Below are positions 17,474-35,004 of a stretch of 64,000 nucleotides of DNA, in pieces; the stretch's first letter is position 1, and each line of letters starts with the position of its first letter. This DNA is from a virus, in IMG/VR virus record IMGVR_UViG_3300040770_000181, positions 3,173 to 67,172 of that record; one strand, written 5' to 3'. A program made the position numbers and the translations under genes. The notes beneath the pieces are model-generated. The model ran no database searches. It had not been told where the DNA came from and worked only from the letters and a program-made list of their open reading frames with translations.

Positions 17474-18229
17474 ATGGAATATAAATTCATAAGTTGCAAA
17501 TGCGTTACCTATGGAAGAGTTGATCTACTTGAGGAAGCTATACAAAGCTTTCTCAAGCAAGATTACCCTGCTGATAGATGTGAATTAATCATAGTGAATG
17601 ATTATCCTTTACAAACGCTTGTTTATAACCATCCAAACATCACAATTATAAACATGCCTAAAACTTTTACCACTATTGGTGATAAAGAACAATATGCTAC
17701 ATATATGTGTGCTGGAGACATTATCTGCCAATGGGATGATGATGATATTGCATTACCAAATCATTTAAGTAACGTCAATAAATATTTTACAGATGAAACT
17801 AATATCCTTCATTGGAAAAATGGTATATTTTATAATGAACCTCATATTACTGCTATTACTTTTGTTGGTAATTCTGGCATTGTTTTCAGAAAATCAGCAT
17901 GGGAAGCTATAGGAGGACATCCTCTTGAAAATGCTGGTTATGATATGACTTTTATTGAATCTTTAAATGCATATGGAGGAAGAACTTTTGCTGAACCTCC
18001 TAAACCAGAAGCTAGTTGGATATATAGATGGCATATGAGCTCTGCTGATTTGTATCATCAATCAGGTATGGGAACTGATGTTCCTGGTAGACCAAATATT
18101 TTAGAAAGGCATTCGCAACATATAGAGATTCTTAGATTAAAAGGAAGAATACCCACAGGAGAAATTAAATTAAAACCTTATTGGCGCCAAGATTATGTTC
18201 AACTGTTAAAAGAATTTATTGATAAATAA
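17474..18229 (+). CDS. Glycosyltransferase family 2
   Basis: ISCKCVTYGR..LLEEAIQSFLKQDY...ELIIVND and WDDDD GT-A motifs. Confidence 0.85.
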   Translation: MEYKFISCKCVTYGRVDLLEEAIQSFLKQDYPADRCELIIVNDYPLQTLVYNHPNITIINMPKTFTTIGDKEQYATYMCAGDIICQWDDDDIALPNHLSNVNKYFTDETNILHWKNGIFYNEPHITAITFVGNSGIVFRKSAWEAIGGHPLENAGYDMTFIESLNAYGGRTFAEPPKPEASWIYRWHMSSADLYHQSGMGTDVPGRPNILERHSQHIEILRLKGRIPTGEIKLKPYWRQDYVQLLKEFIDK

Positions 18230-18230
18230 C

Positions 18231-18260
18231 AAAAAACCCTCTATCACTAGAGGGTTTTTT
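18231..18260. terminator. Bidirectional Rho-independent terminator at the strand-switch point
   Basis: AAAAAACCCTCT-ATCACT-AGAGGGTTTTTT perfect hairpin between convergent gene blocks. Confidence 0.9.
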
Positions 18261-18262
18261 TA

Positions 18263-18370
18263 TTACTTGGTTGGTGGTTTCCTACTAGGAGAACTTTCTT
18301 TCATGACCATTGGTTTCTTTTTACTAGGAATAGAAACTTTAGGTGCTTTTTTAGGACTTCCTGATTTCAT
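18263..18370 (-). CDS. 35-aa Lys/Pro/Ser-rich basic peptide (MKSGSPKKAPKVSIPSKKKPMVMKESSPSRKPPTK)
   Basis: Manually translated; exactly fills the gap between the 18380 stop and the terminator. Confidence 0.6.
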   Translation of the reverse strand: MKSGSPKKAPKVSIPSKKKPMVMKESSPSRKPPTK

Positions 18371-18379
18371 AATAGTTTT

Positions 18380-18637
18380 TTATGGTTGGTTAGATAATGT
18401 TGCTACACCTTTTTCAACAGCGTTACCCATTAATTTTTCAATTATTTTATTAGCATCATTAGCCATTAAAATAACTGTAGCTTGTTCAGTATTTAAAACT
18501 GCTCTAAGAGTGTTTAAAAGATGTCCAAATTCAGCACCATTTAATTCAAATTTATCTTCTGCAGTCCAGGTATATTTCTTAGCTGGATCATATTTTTCAA
18601 TTGATACTTCTACTGCGTCTTCTATTTCTTCTTTCAT
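18380..18637 (-). CDS. Hypothetical protein
   Basis: 85-aa ORF with a promoter-like element upstream. Confidence 0.7.
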   Translation of the reverse strand: MKEEIEDAVEVSIEKYDPAKKYTWTAEDKFELNGAEFGHLLNTLRAVLNTEQATVILMANDANKIIEKLMGNAVEKGVATLSNQP

Positions 18638-18654
18638 AATTTTGGTTTTAAGAT

Positions 18655-18690
18655 TTGTGTAAAAGTAATAAAAAATATTAAGTTACACAA
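18655..18690 (-). promoter_or_regulatory. Promoter-like element TTG-N20-TACTTTTA within TTGTGTAA/TTACACAA inverted repeat
   Basis: One mismatch from TAnnTTTG; same 20-nt spacing as the 22169 and 56739 promoters. Confidence 0.45.
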
Positions 18691-18694
18691 GGTT

Positions 18695-18988
18695 TTATCT
18701 TTTATAATCCAAAACAATGTCAAAAACTATTGTAGCTGAGGTAGTTATAGATTTACTCATATCTAATTTAATTTTCATTAAATTACAAAACTTTAAAATT
18801 TCTTCTATAAGCATATTGTTATATTTAGGAAGACTTGAAGCTATCCTAAATCTATAACAATTAATACTTTTTGAAATTTCAAGACAACATAACTCATCAA
18901 CAGAAGATATTACACCTTCTAAGTGAGCAAGAAACACTTCATCGTTATCTTGCATCACTTTAGGAAAATGTTTTCTATTTATCTCCAT
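18695..18988 (-). CDS. Hypothetical protein
   Basis: 97-aa ORF coupled to the 18990 gene. Confidence 0.65.
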   Translation of the reverse strand: MEINRKHFPKVMQDNDEVFLAHLEGVISSVDELCCLEISKSINCYRFRIASSLPKYNNMLIEEILKFCNLMKIKLDMSKSITTSATIVFDIVLDYKR

Positions 18989-18989
18989 A

Positions 18990-19172
18990 TTATATTGGAG
19001 CTATTGTTGTAGTCGTTGTTGTTGTAGTTGGTCCACAACATTCGTATGATACAATTTCTTGCCATTTTCCCACTTTTGGTTTATTTTTACGAAGAATTAA
19101 ACTTCCTGCTACAACTCTTCCGCTTCCATCGATGCGAACAAAGGCCTTTAGGTCTCTCTTACTTGTACTCAT
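18990..19172 (-). CDS. 60-aa protein with C-terminal poly-Thr tail (CCGPTTTTTTTTIAPI)
   Basis: ORF track; Thr run uses mixed ACT/ACA/ACG codons. Confidence 0.75.
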   Translation of the reverse strand: MSTSKRDLKAFVRIDGSGRVVAGSLILRKNKPKVGKWQEIVSYECCGPTTTTTTTTIAPI

Positions 19173-19183
19173 AATAATTGTAT

Positions 19184-20200
19184 TTAATAATTAATGTTAT
19201 ATTTTGTTTGTAATTCTTTTAATTTATTTGCATAATAAGAAGTGCAATATTTTTTTGATTCTTCACTATTTATAACAATATCTATCTGAGTGTCTAACAT
19301 TGGATTTAGACCAGTATGATATTTTCCTTTATAAAAAGCAGGATAACCATTTCCCATTTCAGAAACAATCCCTGCATTGTGAAATATAGTGTTTGTTTTT
19401 AATTTTTCAATAGAATCTGAGGCCCATGCAAAGTTTAATTCAGGTACCACTTTAGTTTCTTGATTTCTTAACCAAAGATTCCAAAGAACAGCCCACATAT
19501 CTGCACACCAGGATTGAAAACCACTATTTTCATCTGCAAAGAATTCTCTATTTACTTGACCAAGATATGTTCTGATTAGAATACAATCATTCATAACCTT
19601 ACTCCAGTAATATGAATCTACATTCTTTAAGAGATATTGAGCACCTCCAGAATGTAAATTATTGTTTTCAGCTATCTTTCTATCGATTCCGATAATTGCA
19701 CATAGCTCGCCCAGTATATCTCTACTTTTATATTCTTCAAGCTTATCTGGTAACACCTGGTTAACTTTACTGTCAAAATAGTCTGCATTTATATAACTGT
19801 TAGTATCTGAAAGATAATGTACATCATCTTCAAGAAATTTATCAATATTAAAATCTTTCATAAAAAGAATATCAGAGTCACAATAAAAAATTGCTTTGTT
19901 ACTCATCTCAGGACGTTCTTTAAAATACTTCCAAGCAGTGTAAGGTCTTAATACAGGTATATAAATACCTAATAAAGAATTTACATCATCCTCATCAGTA
20001 TAAAAGTTAAATTCCGCCTCAGGATATAAACTAATAATTTGATCCCATTTAGTATTTTGAGTTCTACCTTTAGGAACAAACAAAAGCACAATAGCTTTAT
20101 CTGAGTGTCCTAAGTCTCTTAAGCTGTCAAGCCAAAGATGCACTTGCCAAGTGTAATACGTATCATCTGGGCAAATTGTTAGAAATTTTAAATCTTTCAT
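19184..20200 (-). CDS. GT-A glycosyltransferase resembling peptidyl-serine alpha-galactosyltransferase / Hyp O-arabinosyltransferase (GT96/GT95-like)
   Basis: YYTWQ, YIPVLRP, CDSDIL (DxD), HSGG, WCADMW, IFHNAG in the same order as the plant SGT1/HPAT motifs. Start moved to Met 20200 because the promoter element covers the 20227 start. Confidence 0.65.
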   Translation of the reverse strand: MKDLKFLTICPDDTYYTWQVHLWLDSLRDLGHSDKAIVLLFVPKGRTQNTKWDQIISLYPEAEFNFYTDEDDVNSLLGIYIPVLRPYTAWKYFKERPEMSNKAIFYCDSDILFMKDFNIDKFLEDDVHYLSDTNSYINADYFDSKVNQVLPDKLEEYKSRDILGELCAIIGIDRKIAENNNLHSGGAQYLLKNVDSYYWSKVMNDCILIRTYLGQVNREFFADENSGFQSWCADMWAVLWNLWLRNQETKVVPELNFAWASDSIEKLKTNTIFHNAGIVSEMGNGYPAFYKGKYHTGLNPMLDTQIDIVINSEESKKYCTSYYANKLKELQTKYNINY

Positions 20201-20224
20201 ATATGTAATTATTGGTTTAATGTA

Positions 20225-20232
20225 CAAATATA
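20225..20232 (-). promoter_or_regulatory. Bacteroidota -7 promoter element TATATTTG upstream of the GT96-like gene
   Basis: Exact TAnnTTTG 24 nt upstream of Met 20200; -33 element not clear. Confidence 0.55.
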
Positions 20233-20247
20233 ATAAAATTATTTAAA

Positions 20248-20388
20248 TTATACTACTGTTGTAGTGGTAGTTGTGGTTGCAACTGATTTTTTAGTAGCAG
20301 CATTTATTTTTATTAATCTGTCTAATTGCTTAGATATTTGATATAATAATTTAGCTTCTGTGCTCATTCCTGCTTGTTTTGAATTCAT
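20248..20388 (-). CDS. 46-aa protein with C-terminal poly-Thr tail (MNSKQAGMSTEAKLLYQISKQLDRLIKINAATKKSVATTTTTTTVV)
   Basis: Manually translated; absent from the ORF track; fills the gap between lysozyme and GT; mixed Thr codons. Confidence 0.7.
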   Translation of the reverse strand: MNSKQAGMSTEAKLLYQISKQLDRLIKINAATKKSVATTTTTTTVV

Positions 20389-20406
20389 TACGTTTAGTTT
20401 AAATTG

Positions 20407-20904
20407 TTATATTTTTGTAAAGTATAAATTACTTTCTGCTTTTCTTCTTCTGATAAGTCCTCTTAATTGAACACCGTCTGCTGTTATGTATTTAGTTTCT
20501 ATCCATTTTCTAATAGAAGCTTCAGAAGCTCTGTTGTTTATTAATTTATACAATGTAGAAGACCCACCTGTATTATAAACATAAGAAACCAAAGCATCAA
20601 ATTGATTTTGATTTAAAGGAACTTTTATTTTTTGCATAACAATATGCTCTCTAGGATCTAAATCTTGTAACATTAATTTAGTAGCTTCTGCTTTAGTTTT
20701 AACTTTTGCTGATTTATATGCCAAAGCTTTATTAGCAATTCCTTTTAAAAAATTACCTTTAGAATCACGCATAGCATGACCATATCCTTCAGTCCATATA
20801 CCAATTGGATCCATTTTTGGTTGTAAACCAATCATAGTTAAATCTCCATCATGTAAAGACTCAAATTCTTGAATTAATTGTATTCCTACATTACTCGTTT
20901 TCAT
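20407..20904 (-). CDS. Endolysin, GH24 phage lysozyme
   Basis: Catalytic E...D...T (EFE...DPIGIWTEGYGH), LNQNQFDALVS, GLIRRRKAE. Confidence 0.9.
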   Translation of the reverse strand: MKTSNVGIQLIQEFESLHDGDLTMIGLQPKMDPIGIWTEGYGHAMRDSKGNFLKGIANKALAYKSAKVKTKAEATKLMLQDLDPREHIVMQKIKVPLNQNQFDALVSYVYNTGGSSTLYKLINNRASEASIRKWIETKYITADGVQLRGLIRRRKAESNLYFTKI

Positions 20905-21151
20905 CGTTTTGTTTTTTTGCTAAAGAATTAGAATAAGTTGTTAATGATAATAAAGCAGCAATAAGCCCTGCTTCAATGCCTAAAAGCATTGCTGCATCTG
21001 CATAAGACTTGCCTAACTCCCATGTAAATATAGAATGATTTAGGTTTCTAACAAAGTCTAATGCAAAAACAAGAGCCAAAACTCTTCTAATTGAAATTTT
21101 ACTATTTGTCCCTAACCACAATGGTTCTATATATTTAAAAATTCTTTTCAT
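20891..21151 (-). CDS. Putative holin
   Basis: 86 aa, two hydrophobic segments, adjacent to endolysin. Confidence 0.55.
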   Translation of the reverse strand: MKRIFKYIEPLWLGTNSKISIRRVLALVFALDFVRNLNHSIFTWELGKSYADAAMLLGIEAGLIAALLSLTTYSNSLAKKQNDENE

Positions 21152-21777
21152 TTATGTAATTTTATTTTCCAGTATAAGTTTACACCTACATGAAAGTTTT
21201 TTTGTGTATCTATTCCTCCATATAAACCAATTATTTGATCTTTTTTGTCTTTAAACATAAAGCCTGCGTTTAATTGTACAGTATTTGGTACAGGACTAAC
21301 TTCAACTCCTCCACCATAATACACTTGATTAACAGGTTTAGAAAGTTTTGTAATAGTAGTAGTTATAGTTGGGTATTTTAATGAATAAGATGTTTTTCTT
21401 CCAACAATAAGGTTTTCACTAACTGTATCAATTATATTTACATATCCAATGTCATCAATTTTAATTGAGTCTTTATGTATATTTTGTTCAGTGTACTTAT
21501 CAACTAAACCATTATATTGTTTAACCAGCCTATTATAATTTGGATCTGCAACATATTTAATTTTAATTTCAGGTTTACCAACAATAGTTTTAATTAATTT
21601 TGGTTTAGTTACAATTGTATCAGTGACTTTTTTCCATATAGTATCCGTCTTTACAATAATTTCAGGAGAAGTTATTGCATCTCTTTCACATTTTTGTAAA
21701 ACAATAACAATTACTAGTATTGCAATTAATGCAACTAGTAAATTATCTTTAAACCAAGTTAAAATTTTAGACACCAT
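21148..21777 (-). CDS. Putative spanin-like membrane protein
   Basis: N-terminal TM ending in LQKC; C-terminal amphipathic beta-strands; lies in the lysis cassette. Confidence 0.45.
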   Translation of the reverse strand: MVSKILTWFKDNLLVALIAILVIVIVLQKCERDAITSPEIIVKTDTIWKKVTDTIVTKPKLIKTIVGKPEIKIKYVADPNYNRLVKQYNGLVDKYTEQNIHKDSIKIDDIGYVNIIDTVSENLIVGRKTSYSLKYPTITTTITKLSKPVNQVYYGGGVEVSPVPNTVQLNAGFMFKDKKDQIIGLYGGIDTQKNFHVGVNLYWKIKLHK

Positions 21778-22099
21778 TAGCTTTATTTATTGATATGTAA
21801 ATATTAGCTATGTATTGAATTAAAACTCCCATAGCAATTAAAACACTTATTGTCCAAATAATTCTGTTTTTAAATGTTTCTTGGTCTATTAATTTTTTTT
21901 CAAGTTCTTTTACTTTTGCTTGCAATGATCTAATATCATTTACAACACCTCCATCTTTTGTTAATGCATTTCCTAAAATAGCATCTACAACTTGGGAGAT
22001 CTTTGTGTCGATGGAAGTCACTTTTCCTTCCAGCTCTTCAAGACGCTGATCCATACTTTTTAATTCTTTTTCTATTTGTTTTTCGAAAGTTTCTGGCAT
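21767..22099 (-). CDS. Coiled-coil protein with C-terminal TM helix (holin/XhlA-like)
   Basis: Heptad repeats then IIWTISVLIAMGVLIQYIA; first gene of the lysis cassette. Confidence 0.5.
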   Translation of the reverse strand: MPETFEKQIEKELKSMDQRLEELEGKVTSIDTKISQVVDAILGNALTKDGGVVNDIRSLQAKVKELEKKLIDQETFKNRIIWTISVLIAMGVLIQYIANIYISINKANGV

Positions 22100-22168
22100 A
22101 TTATTAAAATATTAATCACGCTCTTTCTTGGGCATGGCATAGTGTTTTTGATTAGGTTAAGTTAATAG

Positions 22169-22199
22169 CAAAAGTAAGGCTAAAATACTATAGATACAA
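22169..22199 (-). promoter_or_regulatory. Bacteroidota sigma-A-type promoter TTG-N20-TACTTTTG driving the lysis cassette
   Basis: -7 at 22169-22176 and -33 TTG at 22197-22199 on the minus strand. Confidence 0.75.
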
Positions 22200-22251
22200 C
22201 ACAAGCAATAACTTAAAGTACATAATATAGCATTACACAAAATTATTTTTA

Positions 22252-22259
22252 TATATTTG
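22252..22259 (+). promoter_or_regulatory. -7 element TATATTTG for the multidomain glycosyltransferase gene
   Basis: Exact TAnnTTTG 24 nt before ATG 22284; divergent from the lysis promoter. Confidence 0.65.
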
Positions 22260-22283
22260 TAGTATAATTCAAAATAATTCATT

Positions 22284-25200
22284 ATGCCAACAAGCTATAC
22301 TGTTTTTAAAGAAGAAATTAAAGATTATTTCTTAAAAAATGTGCCAAATTCTAAAAGAATTTTGGATGTAGGACCAGGGGAAGGAACATATTCTACCCTC
22401 CTAAATAATATGGGGTATCAAATAGATGCTATAGAAATATGGAGACCATATATTGAAAAATATTCACTTAGAGAAAAATATGATAATGTATATTTAGGAG
22501 ATATATTAGAATTTAATGTAGAAAACTATGATTTTATTATATTAGGAGATGTTCTTGAACACATTCCTGTTAAATTAGCTCAAGAACTTATAAACAAATT
22601 TCAAAGAAAAGGTATAGAATATATGGTAGCAGTTCCTTATATGATGGAACAAGGAGAATGGGGTGGTAATATACATGAAACTCATTATCAGCCAGATCTT
22701 ACACCAGAAAATATGTTAGAAAGATACCCATCTTTAGAATTACTTTATTCTAATGAATGGTATGGTTATTATATTTCTAAGAATATAAAAGTAGAAAAAG
22801 CATATGTATTATATGCAAATGCAGCTTATTTTAAAACTGTACAAGGATGTGTAGCTTCTATAAAAGCTGTAAGTGATTTACCAATATTTGTTTATTTAAT
22901 GAATTTTAATGCAAAAATTGAAGGAGCTAAAACTGTTTATTGGAATTGTGATATTAAGGAAAATATTCAATCTGATTATATTGATAGGTCTGATCCTAAT
23001 ATTTATAATATTCTTATACAAAGACCTGAAATTGTTAAACATTGTTTGCTTAATTACGCAGATACAGTGGCATACATTGATTCAGATTCTGTTGCTACAC
23101 ACAATGTAGATAAAATCTTTTCTTTAGCTCCTAAGCAAGCTGTACACCCTTATTTTGTAGAAGGAATGTATGATTGGTTACAATATAATGGTAAAGGAGG
23201 AGTAGAAGATGAAACTGAATATCATAAAAGCCTTGAATACCCTGCATGTGAATTATTTAATGTTAATCAATTTGTTAGAAAAAAATATAGACAAACAGGT
23301 TATTTTGTAGCATCTAAATGGAATATTAAATTTCTTAATGAATGGATATGGATGTGTAATCACCCTGAAGTTAAGCAAAATCCACAATTATATGCTCCTT
23401 ATAATGAAGAAACTCTTCTTAATGTTTTGTTGTGGAAACATAATATACAAGTGGGACTTCCTTATTTATATGTTAATGGTAATCTTGAAACAATTAAAAA
23501 CATAAATAATAATGAATCTATTGAAGAAAAAGATTGGTTTAGATTAGTTAAAAAAGAAGATATATTATTTTTTCATGGAGAAAAATCATATTCTAAAATG
23601 ATAGAAATGACAGAAGAAATTGGTAAACATGAAACTAAATTAACAATTTTATTTTTAGCTCCCCATTTATCTACAGGAGGTATGCCTGCTTTTTTATTAG
23701 AAAGAATAAAAGGACTATTAAATTTAGGACATGAAATATTTGTTATAGAATATCAAAACTATAGTATGGATTTTGTTGTTCAACGTAATGCCATTATAGA
23801 ATTAATTGGTAAATCAAGTTTTTATACTTTATCTGAAAATAAAAAAGAATTATTAAACATTATTAATGATATTAATCCAGATATAGTTCATATTGATGAA
23901 ATGTCTGAAAGATTAGATAATTCTGTTATAAAAGAACTGTATGATTCTAATAGATCTTATAGAATTATAGAAACATGTCATGATATTTCTTTTAATCCAG
24001 AAACTAAACACTTTACACCAGACGCCTATGCTTTTTGCACTCCTTATCATTTGGATACTTTTAAAGATAATCAAGGGGAAAAATCAGTAATTGAATTTCC
24101 CATAAATCCCACTGTGTTCTTTCAAGCAGGAGCACAAGCAGTATTAGGAATGGACCCTAAGAAAAAACACATAGTTAATATTGGTTTGTGGACTTCAGGT
24201 AAAAATCAAAAAGAAATGTTGCTTGTAGCAAAAAATATGCCTGAACATGAATTTCATTTTGTAGGTAATCAAGCTGGTAATTTTGAATCTTATTGGAAAC
24301 CTTTAATGGAGACCCTCCCCCCCAATGTTACTGTATGGGGAGAAAGATCAGATGCACATACGTTTATGGAAGCAGCTGATATTTTTATGTTCAATTCTAC
24401 TTGGGAATGTAATCCTCTTGTATTAAGAGAAGCTATAGGATATGGTAAATCTATTATTGCTAGAAATCTCCCTCAATACAAAAACATGTTTATTTCGTAT
24501 ATAGAAGATTTATCTGATGTACATTTAAAAGAACAAGTGAAATATTTAATTAAAAACCCTGCTAGATATTGGGTTCCAACTAATAACACTTCTATTCACT
24601 TTGCAGAAAATCATGTAAATCTATACAAAAAAATTATGAAACAAAAACCACAACAACAGATAAACACTTCTTATCAAATACACCAACATTTTGTTGGACA
24701 GCCTTTTATTGAAATAACAGGAGATTCTAAATCACTTTTTACAGTGGAATTTTGGGATAAAGAGGAATTAATACATGCAGCAAAAATAACTGTCAATAGT
24801 TGGGTAAAAGTTAATAGAGAGTATTACACAGATTGGATTACCAGAATTTATAAAGATGATGTCTTAGTATATGATAAACCATTAGACTATACTGGTAAAA
24901 GAGTTTATATATCATTTGATAGTTCTTCTTTAGGAGATACTATAGCTTGGTTCCCTTATGTAGAAGAATTTAGAAAAAAACATAATTGTACTGTTATAGT
25001 TTCTACGTATAAAAATTTCCTTTTTAAAGAATCTTATCCAGAGCTTGAATTTGTTGAACCAGGAACAGTAGTAAACAATATATTTGGTATGTATAAACTT
25101 GGGTGGTTCTATGATGATAATAAGGAACCAGTTCTTCCTAATACAATTCCTTTACAACAAACAGCCACTAACATATTAGGTTTAGAATATACTGAAATTA

Positions 25201-25718
25201 GACCAAAAATCAGTTTTAAAAAAACTATATCAGGTCCTCAAAGTTATGTAGCTATAGCAACTAACTCTACAGCTGGTTGTAAATTTTGGACAAAAGAAAA
25301 TTGGCAAGCAGTTATAAATTATCTTGTTAACTGTGGATATAACGTAATTAACACTTCTTTAGAAGATAATTCTTTTACTAACTGTGCAACTCTTACAGAT
25401 AAATCAATAGAAGGAACTATGTCATGTATTTCTAATAGTGAATTCTTTATAGGATTGTCATCAGGGTTATCATGGTTAGCATGGACATTAAATAAAGAAG
25501 TTATAATGATTTCTAACTTTACTGAGGAAAATCATGAATTTAAATGTCATAGACCTATAGTAAAAAGTGTTTGTCATGGATGTTGGAATAATAAAAATTT
25601 CAAATTTGATAAAGGAGATTGGAATTGGTGTCCTATTAACAAAGGCACTGACAAACAGTTTGAATGTCAATCCTCTATCACTCCTCAAATGATAATAGAA
25701 ATAATTGATTCTTTATAA
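22284..25718 (+). CDS. Four-domain enzyme: class I SAM methyltransferase + GT-A fold GT + GT4 + TibC/Aah-like autotransporter heptosyltransferase (GT9-like)
   Basis: LDVGPGEG; YIDSDS; LFLAPHLSTGG...NSTWECNPLVLREA; SSLGDTIAW...GLSSGLSWLAW...CHGC-x15-C-x11-C. Confidence 0.85.
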   Translation: MPTSYTVFKEEIKDYFLKNVPNSKRILDVGPGEGTYSTLLNNMGYQIDAIEIWRPYIEKYSLREKYDNVYLGDILEFNVENYDFIILGDVLEHIPVKLAQELINKFQRKGIEYMVAVPYMMEQGEWGGNIHETHYQPDLTPENMLERYPSLELLYSNEWYGYYISKNIKVEKAYVLYANAAYFKTVQGCVASIKAVSDLPIFVYLMNFNAKIEGAKTVYWNCDIKENIQSDYIDRSDPNIYNILIQRPEIVKHCLLNYADTVAYIDSDSVATHNVDKIFSLAPKQAVHPYFVEGMYDWLQYNGKGGVEDETEYHKSLEYPACELFNVNQFVRKKYRQTGYFVASKWNIKFLNEWIWMCNHPEVKQNPQLYAPYNEETLLNVLLWKHNIQVGLPYLYVNGNLETIKNINNNESIEEKDWFRLVKKEDILFFHGEKSYSKMIEMTEEIGKHETKLTILFLAPHLSTGGMPAFLLERIKGLLNLGHEIFVIEYQNYSMDFVVQRNAIIELIGKSSFYTLSENKKELLNIINDINPDIVHIDEMSERLDNSVIKELYDSNRSYRIIETCHDISFNPETKHFTPDAYAFCTPYHLDTFKDNQGEKSVIEFPINPTVFFQAGAQAVLGMDPKKKHIVNIGLWTSGKNQKEMLLVAKNMPEHEFHFVGNQAGNFESYWKPLMETLPPNVTVWGERSDAHTFMEAADIFMFNSTWECNPLVLREAIGYGKSIIARNLPQYKNMFISYIEDLSDVHLKEQVKYLIKNPARYWVPTNNTSIHFAENHVNLYKKIMKQKPQQQINTSYQIHQHFVGQPFIEITGDSKSLFTVEFWDKEELIHAAKITVNSWVKVNREYYTDWITRIYKDDVLVYDKPLDYTGKRVYISFDSSSLGDTIAWFPYVEEFRKKHNCTVIVSTYKNFLFKESYPELEFVEPGTVVNNIFGMYKLGWFYDDNKEPVLPNTIPLQQTATNILGLEYTEIRPKISFKKTISGPQSYVAIATNSTAGCKFWTKENWQAVINYLVNCGYNVINTSLEDNSFTNCATLTDKSIEGTMSCISNSEFFIGLSSGLSWLAWTLNKEVIMISNFTEENHEFKCHRPIVKSVCHGCWNNKNFKFDKGDWNWCPINKGTDKQFECQSSITPQMIIEIIDSL

Positions 25719-25745
25719 AAAAAGCCCCTTAATTGGGGCTTTTTT
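25717..25745. terminator. Bidirectional Rho-independent terminator
   Basis: AAAAAAAGCCCC-TTAATT-GGGGCTTTTTT between convergent genes. Confidence 0.9.
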
Positions 25746-25749
25746 ATGA

Positions 25750-26970
25750 TTAATAATCAGATTCAATATACATTCTATTTACACCAACAGAAGCTGCAGT
25801 GGCACCAGCATTAGTTGCACCAGGCCCTATTGCACAAGTTGGTATAAGAAGAGCTGTTGTAGTTGGTAAATCTAAAGTTATAGAACTATCTATTAATGTC
25901 ACATTTGATGAAAGATCATCTATTCTATAATAAACAACTGAATCATTTGGTTTACAATAAATAAAGAAATCATAAACATTGTTAGTTGCTAATGCTGGTT
26001 GAACAGCAATAGTTTCTTTTATAGCAACCCCCACTCCATCATTGTGCATAAAAGAAATAGCAGTATCTGCTGTATCAACAGCAAATCCCAACATATTAAA
26101 TTTAGTAGAAGGATCTGCAGTTAATAATGCTGTTGTATCTACACACATTCCTACAAATAATCTATTAGTAGGTGTCCATGTATTAAATCCAGCTCTACAA
26201 AAAAAGAAAAACCCTCCTGAAGTAGGAATTGCTCCTCTGTAAAAGATTGGTTCTCCTCTTAAACTGTTCATAGTATTAACACCTGTTGCAGCAGTAAATG
26301 TATTTTTTCTTAAAGAAGTGTATCTATTTGTTGTAGATGGTAATACAGAAACTCCTGCAACTATAGCAGTTACAAGGGAACCTATCATATATCCTGAAGT
26401 TGCTCCTGGGTTCCACATTACAACGTTATTTTTAAACAAAGCAGCTTGAAAAGGAGTGTCAGCTCCAGTGGGACCTTTCCATTTAGGAAGCATTCTTCCA
26501 GCAACATTTTTTGAATAAATTCTAACACCATTAACAGAAGGAGCAGCAGGATCTGCAATACCATCAAAATCTTGATATTTAGAAATATTTAAAGTTTCTA
26601 AAACTGAAGATAATATAGTTCCAAGACTCCACCCTATTCCAGACTCATAAAACATTGTTGCTCCTGGAATTAATAAAACTTCTCCTGTTCCTAAATATTC
26701 TATTCCAGAAACATCTTTAAGAACAGAAATAAGATTTGAAGTTGTTAAATTTTTGTTTCTAATAAAAATAGATTTAAGTTGTCTAGATATCCCTGTAGCA
26801 GGAGCAGGACAAATTATAGTAGTACCTATTGTTGTTATTTTTCCTTGTGCTGACCCTGGAACTGCTGAAACAAAAGGATCAATATCTACGTAATTTACTT
26901 GATAGTCTATATCAGCAATGGAAGTTGTTTTAATTCTAAAACTTTCGTTATTATTTTGTAAAAATATCAT
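25750..26970 (-). CDS. Putative tail/fibre-associated structural protein
   Basis: C-terminal half is paralogous to the C-terminus of the 30823 fibre (VRIYSKNVAGRMLPKW vs [16 protein letters not shown]). Confidence 0.6.
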   Translation of the reverse strand: MIFLQNNNESFRIKTTSIADIDYQVNYVDIDPFVSAVPGSAQGKITTIGTTIICPAPATGISRQLKSIFIRNKNLTTSNLISVLKDVSGIEYLGTGEVLLIPGATMFYESGIGWSLGTILSSVLETLNISKYQDFDGIADPAAPSVNGVRIYSKNVAGRMLPKWKGPTGADTPFQAALFKNNVVMWNPGATSGYMIGSLVTAIVAGVSVLPSTTNRYTSLRKNTFTAATGVNTMNSLRGEPIFYRGAIPTSGGFFFFCRAGFNTWTPTNRLFVGMCVDTTALLTADPSTKFNMLGFAVDTADTAISFMHNDGVGVAIKETIAVQPALATNNVYDFFIYCKPNDSVVYYRIDDLSSNVTLIDSSITLDLPTTTALLIPTCAIGPGATNAGATAASVGVNRMYIESDY

Positions 26971-26974
26971 ATTA

Positions 26975-29900
26975 TTATAATTTTAATGTGTTGATTGAAT
27001 AATTTCTTGCAAAGTTAAAGGAAATTCCTGAAGTTCCACTAGTACCAGATGATCCAAATGTTGTTCCAGATGACCCAGATGTTCCAGTAGTTCCTGCTGT
27101 ACCGCTTGTTCCACTTGTTCCACTAGTTCCTAAAGAAGCAAATATTCCAGCATTTACAGCGTCAACAGTGGGATATTTTGATCCAGAACCATCAGTAACT
27201 AAAGAATCTTGTTTATTAAAAAGATTTTCTTTAACTGTTATATCTGGCACTACAACTTCTGCCCAACCTAAATTTTTTCTTGCATATTGTTTATTATCTG
27301 AAGGAGCCTCTAATACAGGATTAAGTTCTTTTAACTTATCCTCAATAAGAAATGAAGTTGTTTTTTTATTAAGAAGCTCATACTGAGTTGTTTCAATATA
27401 ATTATCTAAATTATATTCAGCAGCACCTGTAGTTTCATTAAAAGTAAGTTGTTTATTGTTTTGTGATATAAAAAATTCATTAAGAAGAGTAATTTGTCCA
27501 GAAACATATCCCAAATATTTTCCAGAACTTAATTGATTTAAACTCAAATATTCTTGTCCAACTGTTCTACTAACAAAACTTGGTGGAACTATAAATACAC
27601 TTCCGTCTGTATTTAAAACTATAGATTTATTAATTGTAACTCCATTATAAGATGTTTGAGAATTATAAGAAGTAAAATTACCTGTTATAAGTAATTTTCC
27701 ATTTGTAGTTAAAACTATTGTAAAAATCTCAAGATTAAAACCAGTTCCTGTTACAAATGAAGTATCTATAGATCCATCTAAATTTAATTTAACAATTCTC
27801 CCTGCTGGTGTACCATTATAGAATGTCATAGTTCTCCCATACACATATAACTTTCCATCAAGAGCATATAATAATCTATGATAATTAGTACCTGTTCCAG
27901 TAACACTAATACCTGTACCAACATTAAAAGTAGTGTCTCTACTACCATTAGAAAGTATTTTAACTATAAGTGGAGAACTAAAACCATTAAATGTAGGAGC
28001 ATAAGTAGTAACATACACTCCACTGCCATCAGCAGCTGCTAATGCATCAGTTACTGCAGACCCGTTACCCCAAACGCCTGTTGCAAAAGTAAGATCTCTA
28101 AGCCCATCAGCGGATATTCTAATTAAATTAGAACCAGCACTTCCTCCAAAAGTAGTAAAAAACCCACATACATAAATTTGTAGGTTATCTGGAGTAAAAG
28201 ACATACCTTGAACACTACCATTTGCACCTCCAAAAGTATTAAAAGCTAAGTCTACTGAACCATCAAGATTAAATCTAGATATTCTATTTTTCCCCACACC
28301 ATTTATTGATGTAAAATCACCTCCTATTAAAAGTTTTTTTGTTACAGGATCTTCTAAAATAGAGTTAGAGGAAAAAGCATTACCATTCATTGCAGTTGGC
28401 GGCTTAAAACTTGAATCTATAAGTCCATCATTTTTTATTTTAATTACATATTGTGCTTGAATTCCAGCATAAGATATAAAATTACCATAAGCATAAAAAC
28501 CACCACCAGTAGCTTGATAAATATCAGCAATAAAATTATTAGTAGGTAAAAATATTCCAGGATTGTAAAAAGTTTTAAGAAGTTGAATTTTATCTGCTGT
28601 CTTATTTACAGTGATAACATCCTGTAAACTTTTTTTAACAAAGGGAATAGTTTTATTATCAAACCATTCTTTGGTTATTACTGATCTTTCTTCTAAATCA
28701 ATTCCAACAATAGTAGAAAAAGGCAACGTAATAGTATTAACACCTAAATTAATTTTATTAGATTTAGTTATTAATCCTTCTTCATTTAAAGTAAGTAAAT
28801 TAGTAAAAGTAATTGGAGGGCTTATTTTAACTAATTTATTAAGAGGTAAAAATACACCAAAAATATTATTTAAAGCATCAACTTCAATATGTCTTAACTC
28901 TTCAGTAGATGATAAAATCTCAGTTATTGCACCAGTTGTTTTAGAAATTTTATGAATTAAATTAGGAGCACCTGTTTCTGGTTTTCTTGATGTAGCTATT
29001 ATATCTTCTTGAGGAGTAAGTGCAGTATAATAAGGTTGATTGCCAACAGGAAATGTAGCCAATGTTGAAAAAACTCCACTAGCAGATATTTTAGACAAAG
29101 TTCGAGTTGAATTTACACTTGCAAAGTATAAATTATTATCTTTATCACATAATGGTCTTGTCCACCAAGCAGTATTAGGAAAAGGTATATTAGATCTTAC
29201 TTTATCAGGAGTCCATTTATCTGCACCACCAGGAGGATATAAATTTTGTACGTATAAATTATCTAAATTATCTAATTTAAAAGGAGCTTTATCATCACTA
29301 GTATAGCCATTAACACTGAAATTTAAATAAGTAGCTACAACTCCAGCAGGAGATATTTTAACAATTTTATCAGTGTCAAAGCTAAGTGAAGGAACTTGAG
29401 CAAATAAATTTCCTTGCTTATCAAATTCCAGAAAACTTACAAATTTTCCTGGAATAGCAAATACTGTTACTACACCACTTTGAGTCATTTTATATATAGT
29501 TCCTGAAACGTAATGTGATATAAAAATATTGCTATTAGCATCAATTACTAAATCAAAATGATCATCATTAAATGGAGTACTTCCTAATACACTACTAGTG
29601 CCATTAGTATTAACTTTATAAACTTTACCTCCTCTAGTTAATACATATGTAATTCCAGTAGTTTTATCTATTTTAAAAGCTCTAAGTTCAGATTGTATAG
29701 TAGCTGGTCCAGGTTCTAATATAATAAAATCTGAAATACTATATGCAGTAGTTTGTAAATTTTTTAATTGGGTAAAAGTCAATCCAGAATTTTCTAAAAT
29801 ACCACTATTAATAATCACAGGTTTTACTACAGAAATGTTGCTAATATTTTCTAAAATACTACTATCAACATAACCTCCATTTAAATATTTAGGTAAATAA

Positions 29901-30442
29901 TTATTAGTACCTTGTGCTGCTGGTATGTCACTTAAAGTAGCTAAAGTGTAAACCCCTCCAGATTTTTTAGGAGCATAAAAGTAATTATTAGCATTTAAAT
30001 CAGGATGTAATAAAAATGTGTTTTGAAAACTATCTCTAACAACATTAAAACCGTAAGTAGTTGGATCAAATGATGCTCTTTGAATTTCTCCAAACCAATC
30101 AATACTACCTGTAAAAGCAGCTACACCTATTCCTATAACAGTTTTACTTTTAAAAGGATTTGTTCCACTTGCATCTAATATAATATTTTTATCAATTGCA
30201 CTATTTCCGTTAGTTAATACAGATTCTAAATTTTGATTTCCTCCTACAGCTAATAAACCTTGATTAACTGCATCAACTGTTGCATATTTAGTTCCAGTAC
30301 CATCAAAAACTAAACTATTTTGTTTGTTAGAAATTTCTTCTTTATTTAATAAAGAAACCCAAGAACCATCTCCTCTTAACCAATTTGATAAATCAGGAGT
30401 GCCTATCATACCTAAATCTGCAATTTTAATTTTACCAGCCAT
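26975..30442 (-). CDS. Tail fibre / receptor-binding protein with NHL-like and delta-60-like beta-propeller repeats, foldon-like motif and short GTS tail
   Basis: WLRGDGSW N-terminus; repeats such as GGDFTSING..RISRFNLDGSVD; EAPSDNKQYARKNLGW; terminal GTSGTS run. Confidence 0.7.
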   Translation of the reverse strand: MAGKIKIADLGMIGTPDLSNWLRGDGSWVSLLNKEEISNKQNSLVFDGTGTKYATVDAVNQGLLAVGGNQNLESVLTNGNSAIDKNIILDASGTNPFKSKTVIGIGVAAFTGSIDWFGEIQRASFDPTTYGFNVVRDSFQNTFLLHPDLNANNYFYAPKKSGGVYTLATLSDIPAAQGTNNYLPKYLNGGYVDSSILENISNISVVKPVIINSGILENSGLTFTQLKNLQTTAYSISDFIILEPGPATIQSELRAFKIDKTTGITYVLTRGGKVYKVNTNGTSSVLGSTPFNDDHFDLVIDANSNIFISHYVSGTIYKMTQSGVVTVFAIPGKFVSFLEFDKQGNLFAQVPSLSFDTDKIVKISPAGVVATYLNFSVNGYTSDDKAPFKLDNLDNLYVQNLYPPGGADKWTPDKVRSNIPFPNTAWWTRPLCDKDNNLYFASVNSTRTLSKISASGVFSTLATFPVGNQPYYTALTPQEDIIATSRKPETGAPNLIHKISKTTGAITEILSSTEELRHIEVDALNNIFGVFLPLNKLVKISPPITFTNLLTLNEEGLITKSNKINLGVNTITLPFSTIVGIDLEERSVITKEWFDNKTIPFVKKSLQDVITVNKTADKIQLLKTFYNPGIFLPTNNFIADIYQATGGGFYAYGNFISYAGIQAQYVIKIKNDGLIDSSFKPPTAMNGNAFSSNSILEDPVTKKLLIGGDFTSINGVGKNRISRFNLDGSVDLAFNTFGGANGSVQGMSFTPDNLQIYVCGFFTTFGGSAGSNLIRISADGLRDLTFATGVWGNGSAVTDALAAADGSGVYVTTYAPTFNGFSSPLIVKILSNGSRDTTFNVGTGISVTGTGTNYHRLLYALDGKLYVYGRTMTFYNGTPAGRIVKLNLDGSIDTSFVTGTGFNLEIFTIVLTTNGKLLITGNFTSYNSQTSYNGVTINKSIVLNTDGSVFIVPPSFVSRTVGQEYLSLNQLSSGKYLGYVSGQITLLNEFFISQNNKQLTFNETTGAAEYNLDNYIETTQYELLNKKTTSFLIEDKLKELNPVLEAPSDNKQYARKNLGWAEVVVPDITVKENLFNKQDSLVTDGSGSKYPTVDAVNAGIFASLGTSGTSGTSGTAGTTGTSGSSGTTFGSSGTSGTSGISFNFARNYSINTLKL

Positions 30443-30443
30443 T

Positions 30444-30812
30444 TTATGTTGTTGTTATTATGGTTATAGAAGACAAACTATTTAGATATTCTTCTTTTTT
30501 ACTACTATATTCATTTTTAGCACATTCTCTTAAATGTAATATGTTTAAAGGAATATCTGTTCCATTTATAATTTTCCTTTCTATAGCTTCTTGCAATCCT
30601 TGAATATTAGAAATGCATTGACTACAATCTTCTCTAAGTAAGTTTATATTATATTCCACTTCAAGATCTGTCAAATTCTCAGTAAAATTTACAGGATTTC
30701 CACTTAATACATACTCTTTATATTCAGGATATAAAGGAGAACTTTCATTCATAGGAATAAACACATTGTTTTCATCTATTATATACCCACTTTTTGTTGA
30801 AAAATATTTCAT
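30444..30812 (-). CDS. Putative tail fibre assembly/chaperone-like protein
   Basis: FIPMNESSPLYPEYKEY pattern; lies between two fibre genes. Confidence 0.45.
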   Translation of the reverse strand: MKYFSTKSGYIIDENNVFIPMNESSPLYPEYKEYVLSGNPVNFTENLTDLEVEYNINLLREDCSQCISNIQGLQEAIERKIINGTDIPLNILHLRECAKNEYSSKKEEYLNSLSSITIITTT

Positions 30813-30822
30813 AATTTAAATT

Positions 30823-33800
30823 TTATTGATCGGTTTCTATATACATTGAACAAATGTCTAATCCCACTGCTAATGCTGTTGCATTATTAGTTCGCCATGC
30901 TCTAGGAGTAAGTAATATAGTTGAATTAGAAATTTGTGTAGTTGGTGTTAAATTAAGCACTCCTGTTACTGTTACTTGTGTTCCTAAATTTTTAATTTCA
31001 TACCCTATTCTACCAGCAAAGTTAGGATATGAAAATAATACAATATCCCAAGCGGTATTTGTTAATGTTGGTGCTCCTAATGCTGTACCCATAGGAATAG
31101 GAGTTTGTGCAATAGATCCTCCATAAAAAAAGTACCATTGTGTAGCATCAGTAGATAATTGTCCAAATCCCATTGCATTTAATAATGTACTTGGTTCAAC
31201 ATTAGTAGGAGAAGATACGTTACCGTGCATTCCTATAAACATTCTTGCTCCTGCAACAACAGCTGCATCTGAAATTACAATTCTTTCCATATAAGTAAAC
31301 CCACCAAGACCTGTTCCATCCCCTGTAGTAAATTGAGACCCCGTTGCTGCATAAAAATGTCCACATAAACCTCCAGCAGTTGCTACTGAAACATAACCTA
31401 ATCTTTTAATTCTTGTAGCAATATTTGTTACAGCAACGTTTCTTGTTGTAGCTGTACCAACAACAACTGCTGTAGAAACCCCTGTTTGTATAGGAGCTGT
31501 TGTTGCATTTCCTAAAGGTTGCCAATAAACTGCTCTGTTTCTTCCCCAATGAGGTTGTAATACAGAGTCTAAACCAGATGGAGCAATAAAAGCAGGAAGT
31601 AATCTTCCACCTACAGATCTAGCAAAAATAGATAATGCTCCTAATGGTGGTATTGGAGGAGTAACAACAGTAGCATTTAAATTTAAAGAATTATTTGTAT
31701 CATCATAAATACAAACATCTATAATACTCCAAGCTCCTGCAACAGCAACACCTATACGAAGTGCTTGCCCTGGTAATAATATAAAAGGAAGATTAATAGC
31801 AAGTCCGTCTATAGTTTCCCCTGTTGCAGGATAAACATCTAATGTGTTTAAACCACTATTTACAACAGTAATCATATCACTTAAAACTGCAGATGGTAAT
31901 ATTACACCACTATCTAAAGGAGTAGTTGTTATTGTATTTACTTTAGCAGTTAATAATAACGCATTTCCTTGTACAGTCCCTGTTGCAGCTAAAGATGTAT
32001 TATAAGTAAAACTATACCCACCACCACCAGCACCAGATGTACCAGAAGTACCTGTTAACCCTGAACTACCCGAAGTACCAGCAGTTCCAGAAGTTCCAAC
32101 AGCACCTGTTAATCCAGAAGAACCAGATGTACCTGTAGTTCCACTAATTCCGCTAGTTCCAGAAGTACCAACAACACCATTTACACCATTTGTTCCACTA
32201 GTTCCACTTGTACCTGTACCTCCATTTAAACCAGAAGTTCCAGATGTTCCAGTAGTACCTGATGTGCCATTTACACCTGTTAAACCACTAGTTCCTGTTG
32301 TACCTGAACTACCACTAGTTCCTGTAAGCCCTGATGATCCAGAGGTTCCCGATGTACCAAGACTAAGACCTGATGAACCACTTGTTCCAGTAGTTCCTGA
32401 CGTTCCACTAGTACCAATTGCTCCATTAATCCCAGAAGTTCCACTAGTGCCACTAGTTCCTTCAACACCGTTAATACCACTAGTCCCTGATGTACCAGTA
32501 ATACCAGAAGTTCCACTTGTACCGCTAGTACCACTTGTACCTACAATTCCATTAATACCACTTGTACCAGATGTGCCAGATGTTCCTGTTACGCCATTAA
32601 TTCCACTAGTGCCAGATGTGCCACTAGTTCCATTTACTCCAGAAGTACCTGAAGTTCCTGTTGTGCCACTTGACCCTGATACTCCATTTATTCCAGAAGT
32701 ACCAGAAGTACCACTTGTTCCAGATATACCAGAAGTACCTGTTAATCCACTTGTTCCATTAACACCAGAAGTGCCTGTTAAACCAGAACTACCAGATGTC
32801 CCTGTTGTACCACTTGTTCCTAAAACACCATTAACACCACTTGAGCCACTTGTGCCTGAAGTTCCAGAAGTACCAGAAATTGCACTAGTTCCTGAACTAC
32901 CACTAGTTCCTATTAATCCATTAAGTCCAGAAGTTCCTGATGTGCCATTACTGCCAGTAATTCCACTTGTTCCAGTAATTCCACTTGTTCCATTTAATCC
33001 AGATGTGCCAGAGCTTCCAGAAGTTCCATTAGAACCTGCAGGTCCTTGAGATCCAACAAAAATATTACTTCTTACATAAGAAACACTGTTTGTTCCATCG
33101 TAAGTTAAACATATATTTCTTGGACCACCACCTGCAGTTTTTAATGCAAAATATTTAACAATTAATCTATCAGTAGTTAATAAAGTAAATCCTGGTTGTG
33201 TTATTGTAGAAGTATAAAGAGTTGTAACAAGCCCCATTATATCTCCTGTAGATCCTGAAAATAATTGAGTTTCCGTTCCACCTAAATCTCTTTTATATAC
33301 ACGAATAACTATTTCATTAGTTCCTCCAGAAGAATCAATATTAGCATATGTTCTAAATACCCATGGACCTGCTGGAATTTCCTCAACTCCTGGTTTACCT
33401 GATATTGTTACAAAAGATTGAATTAAAACTTCTCCACTAGACGTAGTTATAGACTGACAATTTGTTATTTCTGTATTAACAGGAACAAAAAGTCGTAAAT
33501 CTTTATAAGGAACAATATCAGAATTGACATTGTGTAAATACCAAAATTGAGGAATAGCCTGGTCTCCATTTAAACCAGAAGTACCTGCACTTCCACTAGT
33601 ACCACTAGAACCACTAGTACCACTAGATCCACTGGATCCTGCAGTACCACTACTGCCTGTTGTTCCAGACGTAGCAGATGTTCCAGATGTTCCTGTTGTA
33701 CCAGATGTACCTGTTGTACCACTTGTGCCATTTAAAGCAGAAGTTCCTGAAGTTCCATTTGTACCATTTATAGCGGATGTTCCTGATGTACCATTTATTC

Positions 33801-35004
33801 CAGAGCTACCAGATGTTCCTGAACTTCCAGATGTTCCAGTAGTTCCATTAATACCAGATGTTCCTGAAGTACCATTAATACCTGAAGACCCACTAGTTCC
33901 AGTTGTTCCTGAACTACCTGATATACCATTAGTTCCATTTACAGCACTAGTTCCACTAGTTCCTGTTGTACCTGAAGTACCATTATTTCCAGTTGAGCCA
34001 CTTGATCCACTTGTTCCACTTGTTCCAGTTGTTCCACTTGTTCCAGTTAAACCACTACTTCCTGACGTTCCTGAAGTGCCTGTAGTTCCACTAGTACCAT
34101 TTGTTCCGTTAATTCCATTAATACCACTAATTCCACTTGTTCCTGATGTACTACTAGTCCCAGAGGTTCCATTAGTCCCTAAAACAGAAATTCCACTTGT
34201 ACCAGAAGTTCCTAGTGTTCCATTAATTCCTGAACTTCCTGAACTTCCTGAAGATCCTCCATCTGTTGATACATTGTAATAAACAAATAAAGATTGAGAA
34301 GGGTCAGGAGCAGTAACCATAGTTATTGTATTTCCTAAAACTGTATAATCTATTCCATTATATTGTGTAACACCATTTTGAATTACTATAACTGCTGCTG
34401 GATTGGTAGGAATCTCTAATAAAGTAAAAATTTTATTAACACCATCTATAATTCCAATAGGAGTTTCTGATTTTGTAATACTTGAACTTCCAGAACTTCC
34501 TGACGTTCCTGTTGTACCAGATGTACCATCAAATCCTTCTTTACCATTAGTTCCTGATGTACCATCAATTCCTGAAGTACCTGATGTGCCAGTTAAACCA
34601 CTAGAGCCACTTGTTCCAACAGATCCGCTTGTTCCTGCTGAACCACTTGTTCCATTAACGCCACTACTACCAGAAGTTCCATCTGATCCATTTATACCAC
34701 TAGTACCATTTATACCAGAAGTTCCATCTACTCCACTAGTCCCATCTACTCCAGTGGTACCATCTAAACCATTAATACCTGATGTACCTGATTCACCAGA
34801 AGTTCCACTAGTGCTAGATAATCCTGAAGAACCAGAAGTTCCTGCAGAGCCTGAAGTTAATAAAGCAAGATCTATTTTTTCTAATGCTGTCTGAAAAGAA
34901 TCATTAGTATTAATACCTGTATAAATAAGATTAGCCCCCTCGTAAAAAACGCATTGGGAGCTAAGAATTATTGGGCAAGCATCTGGTGTACAAATTATTG
35001 ACAT
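30823..35004 (-). CDS. Tail fibre with three long Gly-Thr-Ser collagen-like blocks separated by globular domains
   Basis: Gly-X-Y periodicity ([12 protein letters not shown]) over roughly half of 1393 aa; Cys-containing N-terminus; globular C-terminus. Confidence 0.8.
32020..33050 (-). repeat. GTS Gly-X-Y repeat block 3
   Basis: Degenerate 9-nt tandem repeats. Confidence 0.9.
33565..34260 (-). repeat. GTS Gly-X-Y repeat block 2
   Basis: Degenerate 9-nt tandem repeats. Confidence 0.9.
34481..34858 (-). repeat. GTS Gly-X-Y repeat block 1
   Basis: Degenerate 9-nt tandem repeats encoding GTS/GSS/GID triplets. Confidence 0.9.

Follow-up and report, generated by a model that had tools for sequence, protein, structure and literature searches.

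Does the phage genome studied here encode enzymes that place sugars on its own proteins, and which proteins would carry them? The question is raised by a 64,000-nucleotide (nt) stretch of viral DNA, hereafter the window, which covers bases 3173-67172 of the 81,250-bp IMG/VR record IMGVR_UViG_3300040770_000181 (the record is estimated to be ~70% complete). Between positions 17474 and 35004 of the window, an earlier note had described three genes with glycosyltransferase (GT) domains among genes for Thr- and Ser-rich proteins, and had read them as a single virion O-glycosylation locus; the open reading frame (ORF) listing of the window contains every gene that it named, each in its assigned place. 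We found that this locus is two separable modules rather than one pathway. Module A joins a plant-like transferase to proteins with poly-Thr tracts, and Module B joins a four-domain fusion enzyme of the TibC/Aah type to a collagen-like fibre. Judged from their sequences, these are probably two independent tag-plus-transferase systems that O-glycosylate the phage's own proteins. The central genes of Module A are given below; here and throughout, Tn denotes a run of n threonines and aa stands for amino acids.

19184..20200, minus strand: Module A transferase, 338 aa, phrog_4417 family, GT-A fold.
18990-19172, minus strand: candidate acceptor, a 60-aa microprotein that ends CCGP-T8-IAPI, 11 nt downstream of the enzyme.
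20248-20388, minus strand: candidate acceptor, a 46-aa microprotein that ends VA-T7-VV, directly upstream of the enzyme.

The transferase ORF extends to a TTG at 20227 (19184-20227, minus strand, 347 aa), and its relatives start at M10, giving the 338-aa form. This protein matches phrog_4417 at 2.9e-57 and has no match in Pfam or NCBIfam; an exhaustive search recovered 768 cluster representatives of its family at E <= 0.001 (clusters at 50% identity). An AlphaFold2 (AF2) model built with a 93-sequence alignment reached a predicted local distance difference test score (pLDDT) of 97.6 and replaced a single-sequence model of the 347-aa form, which was discarded at pLDDT 35. Both aspartates of the DSD motif, D108 and D110, are the same in all 93 sequences. 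Comparison with Swiss-Prot models returned Arabidopsis SGT1, a peptidyl-serine alpha-galactosyltransferase, as the top fold match (E 3.9e-10, template-modelling (TM) score 0.59), followed by the hydroxyproline O-arabinosyltransferases HPAT1-3, RDN and PLENTY (TM 0.58-0.62 over residues 2-332), with GT8 glycogenin weaker (TM 0.43-0.47). Among clusters of the AlphaFold database, three of the transferase family itself were followed by many labelled 'Hydroxyproline O-arabinosyltransferase-like'. In other proteins, members of the family are fused to a methyltransferase, a GT2 domain, a Skp1-type N-acetylglucosamine transferase (PF11397) or a protein O-fucosyltransferase.

The likeness to plant SGT1 and HPAT proposed in the earlier note therefore holds at the level of fold: SGT1 (CAZy GT96) and HPAT-RDN (CAZy GT95) are the best named matches, over the whole length, with a GT-A fold and a DxD motif, while membership of GT95 or GT96 by sequence is not established. 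The plant enzymes act on repetitive hydroxy-amino-acid peptides. Unlike them, the phage protein is cytoplasmic and soluble and has no membrane anchor, and its presumed acceptor is poly-Thr in place of the Ser-Hyp extensin motifs of plants. Complex prediction with the transferase and the 60-aa microprotein returned a score of 0.01, which carries no weight either way.

Which proteins this enzyme would modify is indicated by its neighbours. The close-relative set comprised 80 IMG/VR relatives with 64-76% identity to the enzyme, and in 75 of them ORFs that encode T6 or longer lie on the same strand as the enzyme, no more than 1 kb from it. The density of such ORFs is 0.5-0.9 per kb next to the enzyme and falls to ~0.01 per kb at distances above 3 kb; this enrichment of about 50-fold does not arise by chance. 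Module A is conserved in all relatives sampled. Because the 80 relatives share ancestry, recurrence in unrelated phages is the stronger evidence, and independent lineages were sampled through INPHARED matches and four metagenomic representatives. The enzyme and poly-Thr pairing was present in 9/10 independent lineages checked (eight isolate phages, two metagenomic), mostly Firmicutes phages; the pattern was seen in two of the four metagenomic representatives, the contexts of L173 and L174 being too short to judge.

At Firmicutes-phage loci, a poly-Thr-tailed ORF ends less than 120 nt upstream of the enzyme in 83/88 cases, with tails (for example, T6-KP-T7-QA) that resemble the T7-VAP-T7 arrangement of the present phage. 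The enzyme lies inside the head-tail module of Enterococcus phiFL1A and VPE25, Lactococcus 1706 and bIL285, Staphylococcus SA2, Clostridium phiCTP1 and Arcanobacterium TPWB06, and in these phages the poly-Thr tail is on the major tail or tail-tube protein. Lactobacillus iLp84 carries T7-SK on both the capsid and a tail protein, and in Lactobacillus Semele and Chryseobacterium MA9V-3 the poly-Thr tract is in the protein adjacent to the enzyme. We also observed that in SA2 (L179:2167-2430) and TPWB06 (L181:2220-2426) the gene for the major tail protein shares its 3' end with an overlapping poly-Thr ORF, which suggests a frameshift-extended, more heavily tagged isoform of the tail tube.

The same tags occur on structural proteins of the phage under study. 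Its record has 8 T7 sites, all on the coding strand, and 6 of these lie outside the window in three proteins:

L200:593-6244 (the same as G000:67592-73243), minus strand: 1883-aa muzzle-like virion structural protein, phrog_37948 (2.6e-103), just past the right end of the window.
L200:9841-10944: 367-aa structural-block protein with poly-Thr tracts.
L200:12255-12767: 170-aa structural-block protein with poly-Thr tracts.

The C-terminal third of the 1883-aa protein holds T6SSTSST7, a tract beginning T5ST3, and T7 linkers between small Cys-containing domains, so the tag sits on a bona fide virion protein of this phage. Through this muzzle-like protein we identified four relatives that are absent from the 77 records returned by the enzyme search, and their 510 kb contain no T7 tract. 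The earlier note had raised the question of whether enzyme and poly-Thr genes track together across genomes, and they do: the relatives, the Firmicutes-phage loci, the independent isolates and the muzzle-like protein together show the transferase to be coupled genetically to Ser/Thr tails on virion proteins.

This coupling bears on a different explanation of the locus, in which the transferases modify host envelope glycans (lipopolysaccharide, capsule or another surface polysaccharide), thereby blocking superinfection or aiding release, and the Ser/Thr tracts are unmodified flexible linkers. GT2, GT4 and GT9-like folds are typical of polysaccharide synthesis, and phage glycosyltransferases that alter host serotype are well known (as cited in PMC12619734). 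However, such modification does not readily account for the tight synteny of enzyme and poly-Thr genes in unrelated phage lineages and across host phyla, the named folds closest to the plant-like enzyme belong to enzymes with peptide substrates, and the relatives not returned by the enzyme search are without any T7 tract. We consider an envelope role unlikely, and return to it with the fibres.

The two microproteins differ in design. The 46-aa protein has a helical N-terminus and a C-terminal T7 tail, and the 60-aa protein has a conserved 46-aa N-terminal domain ending ECC(G/N)P, followed by T8-IAPI. The 60-aa family has 890 homologues, whose N-terminal domains are 73-92% identical; ECCNP precedes the Thr run, T7 is the modal run length (157/246 runs), and the usual linker is VAP or AAP. 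We found this N-terminal domain in 76/80 relatives, including 60/60 of those with enough flank. The N-terminal domain of the 46-aa protein was detected by tblastn in 28/80 relatives, and most of the 80 have upstream ORFs that are similar to the 46-aa protein and end in T7. The Thr runs of both microproteins are encoded by a mixture of Thr codons, among them ACC and ACG, both uncommon in this genome. Three further genes lie close to the microproteins:

18695-18988, minus strand: 97-aa ORF after the poly-Thr cassette.
18380-18637, minus strand: 85-aa ORF after the poly-Thr cassette.
20407-20904: lysozyme of the lysis cassette, beside the poly-Thr microprotein genes.

The 97-aa and 85-aa ORFs are kept at conserved offsets in 72/80 and 64/80 relatives, respectively, have no PHROG match and may belong to Module A. 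We examined a 122-aa ORF at 30444-30812, with the ending ITIITTT, as a possible third tagged protein and discarded it: it has only T3 and is not conserved.

Among relatives, the cassette itself varies. It is expanded less than 2 kb from the enzyme in several of them (L009, L011, L038, L010, L015 and others), where the added proteins are 120-690 aa long and consist of small Cys-rich domains joined by poly-Thr linkers, with C-termini such as ...GYGVCLTITGGIITA. These expansions look like a shuffling set of tagged modules. In a distant lineage, an HNH/NUMOD4 homing endonuclease gene (L173:2469-3008) separates the enzyme from a 30-aa remnant that resembles the helical N-terminus of the 46-aa microprotein and is without the Thr tail.

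Both microprotein genes adjoin the lysis cassette and are not in the structural block. Such a position would suit microproteins that Module A glycosylates for a use outside the virion, for example as mucin-like glycopeptide decoys, adhesins or regulators acting inside or outside the infected cell; the unusual conservation of the N-terminal domain of the 60-aa family would also fit. This explanation must be set against the capsid and tail-tube subunits of Firmicutes phages, which carry the same tags, and against the identical tags inside the muzzle-like virion protein of this phage. In addition, inspection of the N-termini found no signal peptide on either microprotein. We therefore regard a purely non-virion function as improbable.

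Turning to Module B, the enzyme and its candidate acceptor are encoded on opposite strands:

22284-25718, plus strand: Module B enzyme, a 1144-aa fusion with a methyltransferase, a probable GT-A domain, a GT4 domain and a TibC/Aah-type domain.
30823-35004, minus strand: candidate acceptor, a 1393-aa fibre with three Pro-free Gly-Thr-Ser collagen-like blocks and a globular C-terminal tip.

The earlier note had described this enzyme as a methyltransferase, a GT, a GT4 and a heptosyltransferase in series. Three of these domains were assigned by family models. Residues 1-165 are an S-adenosylmethionine (SAM) methyltransferase (domain match 14-110), the region at ~450-790 is a GT4 (PF00534 at 621-740, 36.9 bits against a cutoff of 26.4), and residues 820-1143 match the TibC/Aah model TIGR04414 with 251 bits against an equivalog cutoff of 200, a result that the genome search reproduced. 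The remaining domain, at residues ~170-440, is a probable GT-A, called solely from its DSDS motif and from viral GT8/Nucleotid_trans clusters suggested by a language model; phmmer comparison of residues 165-800 with the Protein Data Bank (PDB) gave nothing significant. We considered residues 165-450 as kin of the plant-like enzyme family and rejected them, as profile comparison matched only the DxD segment with a probability of 8%, so the GT-A domains of the two modules are not close kin.

The TibC/Aah likeness was also confirmed, both by the curated hidden Markov model cutoff and by alignment to TibC. phmmer aligned the C-terminal domain of the fusion to PDB 4RAP at 7e-46. The LGD motif is kept (SSLGDTIAWFPY against GTLGDLLGWFPY in 4RAP), as is the four-Cys iron site (CHGCW...WCP...FEC against CYGCW...WCP...FEC). 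'Heptose' as the sugar of this domain is no more than a guess based on homology. Compared with the known enzymes (BAHT, TIGR04414; PDB 4RAP and 4RB4), the phage domain is fused behind a methyltransferase, a GT-A and a GT4, and the candidate that co-varies with it is a Gly-Thr-Ser fibre. The TibC domain is always last in the fusions of the 16 TibC-positive records, which are about 700, 1000 or 1150 aa long. Among the neighbouring proteins, which are collagen-like and beta-propeller fibres, Pfam and PHROG searches identified neither an autotransporter nor an AIDA-type repeat domain.

The 1393-aa fibre matches tail-fibre PHROGs and the Collagen family PF01391 (7.3e-87, 285.5 bits against a gathering threshold of 27.2). 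It has 214 Gly-X-Y triplets, in which 73% of the X and Y positions are Ser or Thr and none is Pro. Two further proteins are encoded between it and the fusion:

26975-30442, minus strand: 1155-aa fibre with DUF5122 beta-propeller repeats (PF17164, 3.8e-33).
25750-26970, minus strand: 406-aa protein, phrog_13925, with no repeat tract.

The earlier note had counted two fibres with Gly-Thr-Ser repeats. The 1393-aa fibre has them extensively, while the 1155-aa fibre has only a short stretch near its C-terminus (~27026-27136) with a weak Collagen match at residues 1105-1139, which makes it a possible minor acceptor. The 406-aa protein is similar to residues 1075-1392 of the 1393-aa fibre (BLASTP, 24% identity, E 7e-15) and is probably an alternative fibre tip rather than an obvious acceptor. 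This distal tip domain, common to the 406-aa protein and the collagen-like fibre (30823-31900, minus strand), suggests two fibres with related receptor-binding ends.

Do these repeats follow the TibC-type enzyme from genome to genome? We compared 41 related records, of which 16 carry the TibC fusion. At least three Collagen matches were present in 14/16 TibC-positive records and in 0/25 TibC-negative ones, so the co-variation about which the earlier note had asked was found for this enzyme as well. Where we inspected the records, the distance from the TibC gene to the fibre genes was at most ~12 kb and usually below 6 kb. Composition differs too: eight TibC-positive fibres that we sampled are Pro-free Gly-Thr-Ser proteins with a Ser/Thr fraction of 0.7-0.98, whereas TibC-negative records have only a ~350-aa Gly-Pro/Ile/Val-Gln protein with a Ser/Thr fraction of 0.05-0.11. 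The latter protein, also collagen-like, is conserved (relatives L185-L190) and has Gln in about two-thirds of its Y positions. On the tree of the plant-like enzyme, the TibC state changes 4 to 7 times, and among independent pairs collagen follows TibC 3 times, the opposite never occurs and there is no difference once. The fibre genes are not conserved in sequence among relatives, as expected of receptor-binding proteins.

If the enzymes acted on the host envelope, the TibC fusion and the fibres could co-vary merely as both are host-specific. Against this, the TibC domain scores above the equivalog cutoff of a protein-specific family, whose motifs it has retained. Collagen-like proteins that carry sugars have precedents in Bacillus anthracis BclA (Thr-linked glycans on GXT repeats), Riftia cuticle collagen and Mimivirus collagen. 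Like the phage fibre, these have Pro-poor repeats with hydroxy-amino acids in X or Y, which in their case bear the sugars, and the sugars are thought to stabilize or decorate the helix. The enzymes involved are different, and the phage fibre context is new; we know of no TibC-type enzyme that acts on collagen repeats.

The third glycosyltransferase gene of the locus remains to be placed:

17474-18229, plus strand: GT2-family glycosyltransferase, 251 aa, last gene of the plus-strand block (PF00535, 2e-8).

This gene matches PF00535 with 34.8 bits (cutoff 23.3). Its orthologues occur in TibC-positive and TibC-negative relatives alike and are missing from some complete genomes. It therefore tracks neither module, and the earlier note's inclusion of GT2 in a shared glycosylation locus is not supported.

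The same comparison bears on the choice between two modules and one integrated pathway, in which the plant-like enzyme would prime, GT2, GT4 and GT-A would extend and the methyltransferase would cap, leaving the same glycan on microproteins and fibres. All the genes do lie within 18 kb, and members of the plant-like family are sometimes fused to a methyltransferase or GT2 in other proteins. Yet the plant-like enzyme and the poly-Thr ORFs persist in the 25/41 relatives that have neither the TibC fusion nor the Gly-Thr-Ser fibres, GT2 is present independently of TibC, and no TibC-type gene is annotated in the inspected regions of the Firmicutes phages that pair the enzyme with poly-Thr. With the plant-like enzyme in every relative sampled and the TibC fusion gained and lost separately, the single line of priming, extending and capping enzymes drawn in the earlier note could not be upheld, and we give an integrated pathway little credence.

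A further function to be considered is glycosylation of the phage's DNA against restriction, since the textbook activity of phage glycosyltransferases is the glucosylation of DNA (as cited in PMC12619734). Pfam, PHROG and NCBIfam searches gave no match to DNA glucosyltransferase families, for both key enzymes the closest relatives have protein substrates, and the co-occurrence described above is with protein tracts. We hold a role in DNA modification to be very improbable.

Our preferred reading, that the phage glycosylates its own proteins by two independent systems, can be formulated as follows. O-glycosylation would take place in the host cytoplasm, before or during assembly. The Module A GT-A enzyme would read modular poly-Thr tags, typically T7 and often T7-VAP-T7, and place sugars on the hydroxyls of the tag. 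The tags in question would be those of the two flanking microproteins and the linkers in the muzzle-like protein and the two other structural-block proteins, and the outcome would be short mucin-like glycan brushes. In Module B, the TibC-type domain would prime Ser/Thr of the Pro-free Gly-Thr-Ser fibres, after which the fused GT4 and GT-A would extend the glycan and the methyltransferase would cap it. The resulting coat may stabilize the Pro-free triple helix, confer protease resistance, or serve adhesion or shielding.

Several observations weigh against this reading, for which the evidence is entirely genomic. For Module A, the transferase shares 11-13% identity with SGT1 and HPAT in structural alignments and has no Pfam family, so its link to them is one of fold only. 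The enzyme is also found apart from the expected tags: LP65 has it with only TETQ repeats, and loci L164, L170 and L171 have it with no poly-Thr tract. The microproteins are only putative components of the virion. For Module B, the canonical acceptors of TibC/Aah are beta-helical autotransporters, not collagen repeats. Searches of the record and of five complete TibC-positive relatives found neither gmhA nor hldE of the ADP-heptose pathway, so the donor must be host-supplied or another sugar. A short Gly-Thr-Ser protein is encoded in one of the TibC-negative records, which is 85% complete. Finally, relatives share ancestry and the independent pairs are too few: the tree-corrected sign test for Module B gives p = 0.25.

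What kind of phage carries these modules? Its record encodes rIIA/rIIB, ribonucleotide reductase and a UvsX-like recombinase, and complete relatives are 108-121 kb long with direct terminal repeats. A DFDID-coding site (43293-43307) lies in a 4679-aa ORF (window 39882-53921, minus strand), as would fit a crAss-type virion RNA polymerase inside a much larger protein. No PHROG or Pfam match was found for this ORF or for the neighbouring 1615-, 1338-, 932- and 902-aa ORFs. Homologues of the 1883-aa protein include the csAssE-Sib 'Muzzle protein' and structural proteins of Cellulophaga phi17:2 and phi4:1 (27-29% identity). The DFDID motif in the giant ORF and the homologue annotated as a crAss-type muzzle make the description 'crAss-like', used in the earlier note, reasonable in a loose sense only, and the phage probably infects Bacteroidota.

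In the literature searched, glycosylated bacteriophage particles were described for mycobacteriophages only, and we found no paper in which the plant-like enzyme family was connected with poly-Thr tags, or phage fibres with a TibC-type enzyme. Mycobacteriophage virions are reported to be O-glycosylated at the C-termini of capsid and tail-tube proteins (Freeman et al. 2023, Cell Host Microbe, PMID 37329881, as cited in PMC12619734). The likeness lies in phage-encoded glycosyltransferases that are paired with tails on virion subunits. Here, by contrast, the enzymes are an HPAT/SGT1-like GT-A and a TibC-type domain, the system is known from genes alone, modular T7 tags occur on dedicated microproteins and in internal linkers of a muzzle-like protein, and the host is probably a member of Bacteroidota rather than of Actinobacteria. 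This analysis adds the presence of both modules together in one crAss-like lineage, the tags on dedicated microproteins and on the muzzle-like protein, the way in which repeats differ in composition according to whether a record is TibC-positive or TibC-negative, and the finding of no phage heptose pathway.

If the two systems act as proposed, virion sugar coats would be widespread in phages of Firmicutes and Bacteroidota, which matters for how stable phages are, how the immune system recognizes them in therapy, how they adhere to mucus or particles, and which hosts they infect. Their action would explain how Pro-free Gly-Thr-Ser 'collagen' fibres, which are common in phages, might be stabilized, and the unannotated family phrog_4417 would gain a testable function. 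The two compact enzyme-plus-tag pairs could also be tested as tools for site-directed protein glycosylation. Tentatively, and at a shade below even chances, we further propose that the T7 glyco-tag, often T7-x-A/K-P-T7, is portable: it would be read by the HPAT/SGT1-like transferase across phages of several phyla and could be appended to any surface protein, including capsid, tail tube, muzzle and free-standing microproteins, with Bacteroidota phages adding an independently exchangeable TibC-type system that coats Pro-free collagen-like fibres. The claim is directly testable, since several carriers are available in culture (Enterococcus VPE25 and phiFL1A, Lactococcus 1706, Staphylococcus SA2 and Chryseobacterium MA9V-3). 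If the tag is portable in this sense, mucin-like phage coats would be common rather than a mycobacteriophage curiosity, and one enzyme fold would link peptide O-glycosylation in phages with that in plants and algae.

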